A DNA stretch of 21,334 bases from a virus (lineage: Duplodnaviria; Heunggongvirae; Uroviricota; Caudoviricetes): the IMG/VR virus record IMGVR_UViG_2531839668_000009, one strand, 5' to 3'. The position numbers and the translations under genes were made by a program. Below are positions 8,562 through 16,951 of the stretch, piece after piece. Position 1 is the stretch's first letter. Each line of letters begins with the position of its first letter. The notes beneath the pieces are model-generated. The model saw nothing but the letters and a program-made list of their open reading frames with translations. It was not told the origin of the DNA and ran no database searches.

Positions 8562-9039
8562 CGAATTTCTCCCGTGTAGAGGAACAGAGTTAAAAAGCCG
8601 GAAGCGGAATCAAATCACAGGATGACCATCTGCCAGTGGCTGGTCGTAAAAAAAAGGCCGCGCCATGCGCAGCCGAAAATAAAGGGATAACGATGATAGT
8701 TTGAGAAAAACAGAAATAACACTTTTGTGGCAAAGCATGGTGCCGGGTGCCTCCCGGTGAATTCAGTATCAGCACCTGAATCCGCGATTACCCCATATTC
8801 CTTCTTGCTGATTGCCCCACCGCACAGGGGGATTCACCATGCAGAAGTGTTTTTAATAAACAGCAAACAAAAAAATCAAGCATTATGCAGGCTGTTTCTT
8901 TTTATCACCGGCCACAGCAATACCATAATGCCGCAGACCAGCACCCCATCCGCCAGCACCGACATGATTCTGCTGGTGAAATCCACCATCACCACCAGAA
9001 ACAGCAGGAGTGCAGCCACAGTCAGGCGCAGTTTTACCG

Positions 9040-9472
9040 TCACAGGTAATTCTCCAGACGAAGACCCAGAACACCGGCAATCTCTTCCAGCACCTTGCGC
9101 TCTTCCGGCTCAATTTCGCCGTCTGCCTCCGCAATGGCCACCGCCACATCCAGCACATCTTCCGCTTCACGCGTATCGTGTTTCACATCCTCGATCTCAC
9201 GTAACGCCGCACGACGACCAGTTTTAAAGTTCGTATCCAGCTGACCGATAATGGTTGCGCTAATCGCATTAATTTCTGACGTAAACGCGTACAGCGCAGG
9301 CTGATTACGCAGTACCTGTTCGATCTTCGCTTTCTAGGAAGCCTCACATTCACCATCTGCACAGGCCACCAGGTATGCGGCGTTAATCACCACCTGTGCC
9401 AGATCGCGTTTTTCAAACTTTTTAATTTCCGTTGCCGCTCTGCGGGCTTTTTTTACCAAAAATACCAAACAT
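9040..9472 (-). pseudogene. TerB-domain-like protein gene disrupted by a frameshift in an A7 tract and an in-frame TAG
   Basis: ATG at 9472 with AAGGA RBS gives MFGIFGKK then shifts frame at the A7 run (9448-9454). The body frame contains two acidic DG-x-E motifs (ADGECEAS, ADGEIEPEERKVLEEIAG), has an amber codon at 9334-9336, and ends ...GLRLENYL. Confidence 0.5.
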
Positions 9473-9641
9473 CGTGACGTTCCTTTGGGTGGGTGAGCCA
9501 ACGCCCGGGAGCGATCTGCCCACAGAGAAAGTCACACTGACCACTCCATAAGCTCCCCCCGAAAGGCTCTGTGGTTGGTATGCGCCGGGCGTGGTGCGGA
9601 TACAAAAAAGGTCCGCAAAAGCGAGCGAGGGAAAATAAGTG

Positions 9642-9718
9642 TGGTGCGTTGTACTGGGTTCGAACCAGTGACCGATTGCTTAGAAGGCAATTGCTCTGTC
9701 CGGCTGAGCTAAAAACGC
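9642..9718 (-). tRNA. argO: tRNA-Arg (anticodon UCU)
   Basis: Hand-folded cloverleaf on the - strand: acceptor stem with one mismatch, GGTTCGAACC T-arm, anticodon loop CTTCTAA, CCA end encoded. Symbol is by analogy with the Stx-phage ileZ-argN-argO cluster. Confidence 0.75.
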
Positions 9719-9731
9719 AGAATACCGATAA

Positions 9732-9808
9732 TGGACCGCCATCGGAGACTCGAACCCCGCGAAACCAGCTTCGAAGGCTGGCGTTCTATCCCGATGAGCT
9801 AATGGCGG
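9732..9808 (-). tRNA. argN: tRNA-Arg (anticodon UCG)
   Basis: Hand-folded: perfect 7-bp acceptor stem, T-arm CGGGG/TTCGAGT/CTCCG, anticodon loop CTTCGAA, CCA encoded; one mismatch in the D-stem. Confidence 0.7.
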
Positions 9809-9815
9809 TATGTGA

Positions 9816-9891
9816 TGGTGGCCCTTGCTGGATTTGAACCAGCGGCCTGGCGATTATGAGTCGCTCGCTCTCACCACTGAGCTAAAGGGCC
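9816..9891 (-). tRNA. ileZ: tRNA with CAU anticodon (Ile2-lysidine type or Met)
   Basis: Hand-folded: GGCCCTT acceptor, D-arm GCTC/GAGC, anticodon loop CTCATAA, T-arm GGTTCAAATCC, CCA encoded. Ile2 assignment is by analogy with ileZ of Stx-type phages. Confidence 0.7.
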
Positions 9892-10003
9892 GGGCGCAGG
9901 ATAATAACGTTACGAAATCAATGTTGCAAGCATTCAAGAATCACCTGGTTAAAAATTACCCTTGCTTCCTCCACCAGCGCATTCACCATGTCTATCCGAG
10001 ATA

Positions 10004-10030
10004 AGTGGCACAAAAAAACCCGCTTGTGGG
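10004..10030 (-). terminator. tR'-like intrinsic terminator downstream of the late promoter
   Basis: On the - strand: CCCGC-loop-GCGGG followed by a 7-U tract, located between the candidate late regulator gene and the tRNA cluster. Confidence 0.6.
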
Positions 10031-10084
10031 CGGGTTTTGTTTGCTTTTGCCATCACGTACAAAATCGGCAAAATATCAGATTTG

Positions 10085-10120
10085 CATGAAATATATGCCT
10101 TTCAATCTACTTTTGCAACA
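10085..10120 (-). promoter_or_regulatory. Candidate late promoter (pR'-like): -35 TTGCAA, 17-bp spacer, -10 TATATT
   Basis: Sigma-70-like hexamers read on the - strand about 60-70 nt upstream of the tR'-like terminator; any Q-utilisation site would lie here. Confidence 0.4.
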
Positions 10121-10163
10121 CTTTGCTTTGAAAATGCCGCCTTTTGTTTTGAACGCGTTCTCA

Positions 10164-10702
10164 TTACAAACAATAAAGCCTCACTAGCGCAATATTTTTT
10201 GTGCGCTGCTTCAGTATGCTGGTGGCGGTCTGTTCTCCCGGTATGATGTCGCTTTCACGGTATACGGAGCGGATTTTTTCCGCACGCAACCCCAGCGAAC
10301 GACGTAATACCGCTTCCGGTAGCGCGTCCGCCACCTGATTGCGGACCGCCCACCAGGATAATTCAGCCAGAGATAATTCACGCTCCTGCGTACCGCTTAT
10401 TGCGTGACGGATGATGTCAATCATCCAGGCGGCCAGATTCTGTTGAGCAAGTTGATCCAGTGAATCAGATGTCTGCTCCCGCAGCTGGTTGTCGCAGTGC
10501 CAGCACAACACCATCGCGCCGGTACCCGGGATTCACCTTCGCCAGCCAGAAACCAGGTGTGACCAGTTTTATCAACGACGCCATTTCTTTTGAGTTCCCA
10601 CAGCTCGTTGACAGCCTCTTCACGACTGATTCCAAGGCGAGCTGCCACCACATGTGAAGAGGCTTTTTTCAGTGCTTTCAGTGCGTCAGATACGGTTTCC
10701 AT
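10164..10702 (-). pseudogene. Candidate late-gene regulator at the Q antiterminator position, split by a frameshift
   Basis: Two overlapping - strand ORFs (10421..10702, 93 aa; 10164..10514, 116 aa) in different frames. The second frame opens at 10532, so the shift lies in about 10512-10535, around GGTACCCGGG. Q identity is positional only; no Q zinc-finger motif recognised. Confidence 0.4.
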
Positions 10703-16893: not shown

Positions 16894-16951
16894 TTCTGGT
16901 GACATTTGGCGGTATCAGTTTTACTCCGTGACTGCTCTGCCGCCCTTTTTT
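16894..16951 (+). ncRNA. dicF: DicF small regulatory RNA
   Basis: TTCTGGTGACATTTGGCGGTATCAGTTTTACTCCGTGACTGCTCTGCCGCCC followed by a T-run matches the DicF sequence as I recall it, with a terminator hairpin at its 3' end; sits upstream of dicB as in Qin. Confidence 0.8.

Follow-up and report, generated by a model that had tools for sequence, protein, structure and literature searches.

Results

Organization of the cargo slot

The window, by which we mean the whole 21,334-nt stretch of DNA analysed, carries on its minus strand a pseudogene of the TerB family, tciA, followed by an intact gene, tciB, and a match to the STnc100 family of small RNAs (Table 1). As an earlier sequence-only reading had described, tciA lies between a tRNA cluster and a NanS-p-like gene. 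Its further proposal, that this is the slot in which Stx phages carry their toxin genes or other morons, is borne out by the Stx2 phage Stx2a_WGPS6, in which the order is Q, ileZ, argN, argO, stx2A, stx2B and an esterase-like ORF. Homology between the window and this phage ends about 50 nt past argO and restarts 87 nt past stx2B, inside the STnc100 match; from these breakpoints it follows that window positions 9592..8861 replace stx2AB exactly. The STnc100 match begins 5 nt beyond the tciB stop codon and forms the 3' edge of the cargo slot in common with Stx2 phages, where an STnc100 prediction lies directly after stx2B (PMC12711010). A 2026 preprint ties the STnc100 family to the PasD sRNAs (10.64898/2026.05.13.724894).

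The GTG start codon of tciB overlaps the TGA stop codon of tciA (GTGA) and is preceded, at about 9 nt, by a GGAG of its own. No sigma-70-like promoter was detected between argO and the tciA ATG; the sole minus-strand promoter candidates lie upstream of the tRNA cluster, at 10118-10090 and 9929-9901. None of the three tRNAs in the cluster is a suppressor, and the interval 8500-10300 is free of tandem repeats. A poly-G run at 9561-9566 (G6 in the minus sense), about 90 nt upstream of the tciA ATG, varies in length between loci that are nearly identical in other respects (most have G7, L007 has G8 and L005 has G13), which could be either homopolymer assembly error or true variation in leader length.

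Table 1 Features of the tciA locus and its surroundings in the window
Feature	Position	Strand	Basis or remark
SASA family carbohydrate esterase gene, NanS-p-like, 616 aa	6711..8561	minus	downstream neighbour
Terminator-like GC hairpin followed by T8	8656..8674	minus	
STnc100-family sRNA match	8699..8871	minus	Rfam, 100.8 bits, E 2.9e-21
tciB-like gene, DUF3927, 55 aa, intact, two hydrophobic segments	8876..9043	minus	PF13064, E 1.7e-16; PHROG 1470 'TciB-like', E 1.8e-29
Segment without homology to Stx2 phage, standing for stx2AB (tciA pseudogene and tciB)	8861..9592	minus	pairwise comparison
tciA-like (TerB family) pseudogene, ancestral ATG to TGA stop	9040..9472	minus	frame reading and profile matches
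48-aa GTG-initiated C-terminal ORF beyond TAG, second DG-x5-E motif only	9040..9186	minus	matches PHROG 3920
In-frame TAG (CTA on plus strand) replacing GAG, Glu46 in 143-aa numbering	9334..9336	minus	alignment to intact homologues
16-codon ORF (MFGIFGKKSPQSGNGN, then stop) opened by ATG in the A7 allele	9422..9472	minus	translation
A7 run (T7 on plus strand)	9448..9454	minus	one A longer than intact ATG-initiated homologues
TTG in body frame, 12 nt 3' of AAGGA	9466..9468	minus	start codon in PGAP and Sakai (ECs_2749) annotation of A7 alleles
ATG start codon of tciA pseudogene	9472-9470	minus	sequence reading
AAGGA, Shine-Dalgarno-like, 8 nt 5' of ATG	9481..9485	minus	sequence reading
Three tRNA genes: CAT anticodon (annotated ileZ/tRNA-Ile), Arg-TCG, Arg-TCT	9642..9891	minus	
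Remnant of antiterminator Q, last 84 nt	10102..10185	minus	prophage without its own Q

Reading frames of the tciA pseudogene

The ATG of tciA opens a frame that is closed by TAA at 9424-9422, as the A7 run places the ATG and the body of the gene out of register. The body frame ends at TGA 9042-9040 and reads ...KKARRAATEIKKFEKRDLAQVVINAAYLVACADGECEAS, TAG, KAKIEQVL...AEADGEIEPEERKVLEEIAGVLGLRLENYL; the TAG, 37 codons beyond the A7 run, is its sole in-frame stop, and no additional stops occur 3' of it. Thus the observations of the sequence-only reading, an ATG with a good ribosome-binding site that is out of frame with the body through a run of seven A, a single in-frame TAG and two acidic motifs (DGECEAS followed by TAG, and DGEIEPEE), all hold on the minus strand. 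The first DG-x5-E motif has TAG as its Glu codon and exists in the ancestral reading, not as encoded, while the second, DGEIEPEE, is intact. An uninterrupted frame for the full TerB domain is not present, given the A7 frameshift and the TAG at codon 46. A TTG of the body frame begins four bases past the start of the ATG. Past the TAG, the first canonical in-frame start is GTG 9186, 50 codons on, with GAGG 2 nt before it; in alignment to 2JXU, the 48-aa ORF that it opens spans only the last third of the TerB fold. PHROG 3920, a family of 48-aa proteins of 'unknown function', corresponds exactly to this GTG-initiated C-terminal leftover of broken tciA genes, and appears to be made up of pseudogene fragments.

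Family identity of the body frame

For the family tests, both lesions of the body frame were repaired (A6 and GAG), giving a 143-aa protein. This protein matched Pfam TerB (PF05099) at 45.7 bits (cut-off 24.4, E 9.5e-12), PHROG 632 'tellurite resistance' from end to end (1-143/143, E 2.1e-68) and chain A of the Klebsiella TerB structure 2JXU, with residues 15-137 on chain residues 21-144 (E 4e-7). Pfam, PHROG and PDB are therefore in agreement on the TerB-like nature of the gene, and the objection that the body frame might not be conserved coding sequence fails, the family matches extending over the whole domain; judged by these three matches, the coding capacity and conservation of the body frame are genuine and not a matter of chance. 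The N-terminus MFG[IFLM]F.KK is kept in about 100 homologues (Escherichia, Klebsiella, Salmonella, Serratia, Pantoea and Erwinia phages), and Glu, the last residue of D-G-x5-E, stands at the position of the TAG in the homologues inspected from several genera.

The TciA family is widespread and extends to large lytic phages of Erwinia, Vibrio, Pseudomonas and Salmonella, virulent jumbo phages among them, which argues for a role of intact TciA that is useful to the phage during infection and not to the lysogen alone. We considered whether tciA belongs to a defence system and rejected this, as PADLOC gave one weak sub-domain match only (E 0.006) and the NCBIfam search a sub-threshold DjlA match only. 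The literature on prophage tciA, tciB and ECs2749/ECs_2749 yielded no experiment on the gene or the intact cassette; that on TerB in prophages and on tellurite morons offers descriptive mentions only, and the names tciA and tciB turn up mostly as Trypanosoma genotype names and in P1 gene tables. A search for expression data on the tciA locus likewise returned none.

Effect of the A7 run

Both lesions had been proposed to be inactivating. The TAG certainly is; the A7 run is a true frameshift relative to the conserved ATG and MFGxF, its inactivating effect is probable, and a body-frame TTG exists by which the frame might be entered. PGAP reports no frameshift for A7 alleles and places the start at TTG 9468-9466, and A7 alleles without the TAG are annotated as intact 142-aa proteins beginning MVFLVKK (ECs_2749, WP_001303558.1). 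Among the homologues compared, however, this N-terminus is confined to E. coli A7 alleles, and the TTG, 12 nt from the Shine-Dalgarno-like AAGGA, competes with the ATG at the ideal 8 nt. The pN/pS ratio of the body is 0.31 within A7 alleles, a value from a small sample with about three differences per pair in each of the synonymous and non-synonymous classes, against 0.11 for A6 alleles and 0.02 for alleles of the homopolymer-free FKKKT type; this pattern may reflect relaxed constraint on A7 alleles. On the basis of the TTG spacing, the restriction of MVFLVKK to A7 alleles and the ratio of 0.31, we regard the A7 run as probably inactivating; for the window allele its status is immaterial, because the TAG comes after it in any case. 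In the window allele, Cys also stands in place of the Tyr or Phe of almost every other homologue, and in L010 and L013 the Asp of the second DG motif is changed to Glu.

The A7 run had further been read as a slippage site that might permit expression. A slippery run is indeed located at the frame junction, where a +1 shift or the loss of one A restores the body frame, but a complete shifted product is not to be had; slippage is moot for the window allele because any frame-corrected product still meets the TAG 37 codons on. Nor did a test for programmed frameshifting find the two-frame arrangement to be conserved: a single frame is used by the homologues from other genera and by E. coli alleles of other types, and the A7 form is limited to one E. 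coli allele group.

Distribution of the lesions in E. coli genomes

Our survey covered 20,395 records from 5,426 complete E. coli genomes, produced by many laboratories and on many sequencing platforms. A tciA homologue occurs in 805 of the 5,426 genomes (809 records), at 2,778 places in total and a median of 4 places per genome. The exact 65-mer around the TAG was found in 521 records and the exact 71-mer around the A7 run in 554, as against 8 records with A6 in that 70-nt context; alleles of this group normally have A7, and the tract is stable and not switch-like. At least 40 of the complete-genome records listed carry the 571 nt around the gene without a single difference. Of 60 rows sampled at even spacing, 8 matched these 571 nt at 100%, which extrapolates to roughly 100 of the 809 records. 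An intact gene with A6 and a sense codon had been named as the outcome that resequencing might reveal; since hundreds of independent complete genomes carry them, the lesions are not sequencing errors.

The window shows 99.977% identity to a prophage, itself defective, in E. coli O157:H16 str. 98-3133 (NZ_CP051001.1). The five differences between them, none inside the tciA pseudogene, are single-base homopolymer indels at 3914 and 6554 (an A run and a C run) and SNPs at 2422, 2445 and 6987, and on account of these two indels and three SNPs the window is a different assembly version or a sister isolate relative to NZ_CP051001.1. That record holds 2 tciA-like places. RefSeq labels the gene a pseudogene with 'internal stop' in NZ_CP051001.1 and in other genomes, and the span corresponding to 9040-9468 a pseudogene of a 'tellurite resistance TerB family protein' with internal stop.

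The TAG allele occurs in O157:H7, O55:H7, O145, O121, O111 and O157:H16 strains and on several haplotypes. In many O157:H7 chromosomes (among them those of strains 2159, 9000 and ECP19-798) a TAG copy and an A7/GAG copy are found together in separate prophages, and strain PV15-279 has two A7+TAG copies plus a 145-aa copy of the FKKKT type (P0006). We had considered TAG and GAG as alternative alleles of one prophage within O157:H7; that reading was dropped, as many genomes hold both in different prophages, and with it any conclusion on which of the two is ancestral. Chromosomal position is an unreliable guide to orthology here because of prophage-mediated inversions. Proteins of the same gene population in the database carry more damage, including other 5' frameshifts, an in-frame deletion and truncations. 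Two rare E. coli protein variants of the A7 type (P0004 and P0012) have Trp (TGG), one base from nonsense, at the TAG position and may be pseudo-revertants.

Allele types and possible gene conversion

Typing of 18 sampled loci at the A run and codon 46 revealed all four combinations of A6 or A7 with TAG or GAG. A7 with TAG is the state of the window, L001, L003 and L005-L007; A6 with TAG that of L008 and L012; A7 with GAG that of L004, which is identical to the allele of strain Sakai, and of L009-L011; and A6 with GAG that of phage JLK-2012 (L002) and L013. A third type, TTCAAAAAGAAAACC, has no homopolymer and is represented by L014-L018. The intact tciA genes are those of JLK-2012, L013 and L014-L018. 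Over the gene body, the window differs from Sakai and L004 only at 9340 and 9336 (GCT TCC TAG versus GCA TCC GAG). This two-base patch is identical to the FKKKT-type paralogues, the flanking differing sites being 9346 and 9313. The patch is compatible with a short gene conversion, with a tract of at most 32 nt, between paralogous prophage copies and in either direction.

Condition of the surrounding prophage

The prophage that carries the cassette is itself decayed. It contains no head or tail genes, tail-fibre fragments excepted, and its Q remnant is fused to a fragment of a DUF968 gene (10102-10526, minus strand). Between Q and the tRNA genes, a promoter-like site (10118-10090) and a hairpin (10015-10038) have been kept; in Stx phages, such a layout of promoter and hairpin between Q and the tRNAs yields a short pR' transcript. 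Amid the remnant of the late and tail region lie a gene for an NleB-family type III effector (137-1117, minus strand) and one for a PerC/Pch-family regulator (3536-3850, minus strand), flanked by tail-fibre fragments and by ISCro1, an element of the IS66 family that lies directly beyond the edge of the window; the virulence cargo has outlasted the phage structural genes. The integrase gene is situated beside yccA. In the immunity region, a match to the DicF antisense RNA (77 bits; 16894-16945, plus strand) precedes dicB, with a RelB/RelE pair and a YdaT-family gene near it.

Discussion

The feature is very probably a non-functional tciA relic in a two-gene tciA-tciB moron cassette that has spread by hitch-hiking. 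In this explanation, tciA, for a small single-domain TerB protein, and tciB, for a small membrane protein of two segments, form a cargo cassette of lambdoid prophages that extends from the ileZ-argN-argO cluster to the STnc100 sRNA and occupies what is the stxAB slot in Stx phages. The extra A that turned A6 into A7 uncouples the ATG from the body, such that ribosomes starting there yield a 16-residue peptide, and a G-to-T change has converted Glu46 of the first DG-x5-E motif to TAG. The body frame might still be entered at TTG 9468, by +1 slippage on the A run or through transcriptional loss of one A; because the TAG stands at codon 46, every such product stops after 44-45 residues and lacks about two thirds of the TerB fold. 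We infer from these reading frames that functional TciA is not made from the window allele. The tciB gene and the downstream sRNA may still be expressed, translation of tciB being possible because it has its own GGAG; transcription of the whole slot in this prophage would need Q from another prophage or a local promoter. The allele would then persist and spread as a hitch-hiker in a recombining late region of the prophage, not through function. By analogy with known TerB proteins, the intact cassette may pair a cytoplasmic metal-binding TerB module with a membrane partner, and it may act in envelope stress or in sensitivity to phages or colicins.

Against a dead gene one may set the lack of further stops in the downstream body frame, the rare variants with TGG in place of TAG, and a pN/pS below 1 among A7 alleles; the small sample and recombination with intact alleles can account for the last of these. 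To the idea that the lesions stem from sequencing or assembly, with A6 and a sense codon in the true gene, we attach next to no probability: homopolymer length errors are common, two homopolymer indels separate the window from NZ_CP051001.1 elsewhere, and A6 does occur in the same context in 8 records, but the identical 571-nt segment in at least 40 listed records (about 100 independent genomes by extrapolation) and the hundreds of exact matches to the TAG 65-mer and the A7 71-mer speak against error, and a G-to-T substitution is no homopolymer error. It is very unlikely that the gene is expressed after all, from TTG 9468 or by A7 slippage and then by readthrough of the TAG or re-initiation, to give a working TerB protein or two fragments. 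Annotators use the body-frame TTG for A7 alleles without the TAG, the A7 run permits perfect +1 re-pairing of tRNA-Lys, and GTG 9186 does open a C-terminal ORF of 48 aa. However, the tRNA cluster offers no suppressor, the ATG is better spaced from the Shine-Dalgarno-like sequence than the TTG, the TAG eliminates the conserved Glu of the first motif, and re-initiation would have to await a start 50 codons past the TAG, with GAGG only 2 nt before it, for a remainder that covers only the last third of the TerB fold. We likewise consider it highly improbable that tciA is phase-variable, with the A run serving as a contingency switch between an on and an off state. All four combinations of tract length and codon 46 exist, and what separates L008 from L005 and L007 is essentially one A and the length of the upstream G run, which fits an occasional slippage mutation; yet the tract is stable, with A7 in 554 records and A6 in 8, recombination among a median of 4 copies per genome can also yield the four combinations, and homologues in other genera have no such run.

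The remaining alternatives invoke selection. The great abundance of the TAG allele, together with its presence on several haplotypes and beside either tract length, could hint at selection rather than drift. Adaptive loss, whereby inactivation of tciA would have been selected in EPEC and STEC lysogens, can draw on the TAG 65-mer in 521 of the 809 records with any tciA and on the many serotypes and haplotypes in which the TAG is found. Loss of function is nevertheless incomplete at the genome level, because TAG copies co-occur with open-frame copies, as in O157:H7 genomes 2159, 9000 and ECP19-798 and in PV15-279 with its FKKKT-type copy, and the spread is accounted for just as well if the allele hitch-hikes with a late-region module that recombines; we give adaptive loss only a small chance. 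A similarly slim prospect is that what preserves the locus is its RNA or a small, regulated output of protein: the A7/TTG form would be a weakly expressed tciA, the transcript would serve as leader or precursor of tciB and the STnc100/PasD-like sRNA, and the TAG would be favoured as it sheds a costly TerB protein and keeps the RNA. We therefore retain the explanation of a non-functional relic spread by hitch-hiking.

Taken alone, this locus matters little, being one more decayed cargo gene in a decayed prophage. Public annotation already labels it a pseudogene, and the broken allele is common among pathogenic E. coli. What is new here is small, namely the A7 frameshift hidden behind an annotated TTG start, the allele counts and the exact bounds of the stx/tci slot. 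With the frameshift masked by the TTG in the PGAP and Sakai annotations, records of the A7 allele group, which about a tenth of complete E. coli genomes carry, show an intact gene or nothing more than an 'internal stop', despite the lost conserved start. Moreover, the slot that argO and STnc100 delimit takes either tciA-tciB or stxAB as exact alternatives, and the shared slot provides a clean frame for studying cargo exchange in STEC prophages.

Among known systems, ECs_2749 of strain Sakai ('TciA/TerB-like protein', prophage Sp14, O157:H7) is the same allele as WP_001303558.1. It shares with the window the slot (Q, ileZ-argN-argO, tciA, tciB, esterase), the A7 run and a late region that is 99.4-99.8% identical over window positions 2617-10186. 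In contrast to the window, Sakai has GCA TCC GAG in place of the TAG codon and its context, is annotated as an intact 142-aa protein from the TTG, retains its Q gene and has an unlike prophage early region. TciA/TciB of phage JLK-2012 (JQ347801) represent the intact form of the same two-gene cassette between a tRNA cluster and an esterase gene, with 93.7% DNA identity in tciA and the same GTGA overlap of tciA and tciB. An intact homologue had been predicted to show A6 and a sense codon, and JLK-2012 has both: it reads A6 and TCA GAG against A7 and TCC TAG in the window, and its ATG opens a 143-aa product. The neighbouring tRNA genes of JLK-2012 differ, being those for Asn, Thr and Gly.

More distant is TciA of phage P1, a full-length homologue with 40.6% identity that also adjoins tRNA genes and has a partner gene in the PHROG named after TciB. 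P1, however, is another type of phage, its genes form a three-gene operon, and they were named by homology only; P1 tciA, tciB and tciC are non-essential for plaque formation by CRISPRi (PMC10695390). TerB of the terZABCDEF tellurite-resistance operon (2JXU) has the same domain with aligned acidic DG...E motifs, whereas the phage genes stand alone with a DUF3927 partner and the window copy is truncated. Finally, the stxAB cargo of Stx-converting phages occupies the identical position but is unrelated, so that the correspondence between stxAB and tciA-tciB is one of positional equivalence, not homology.
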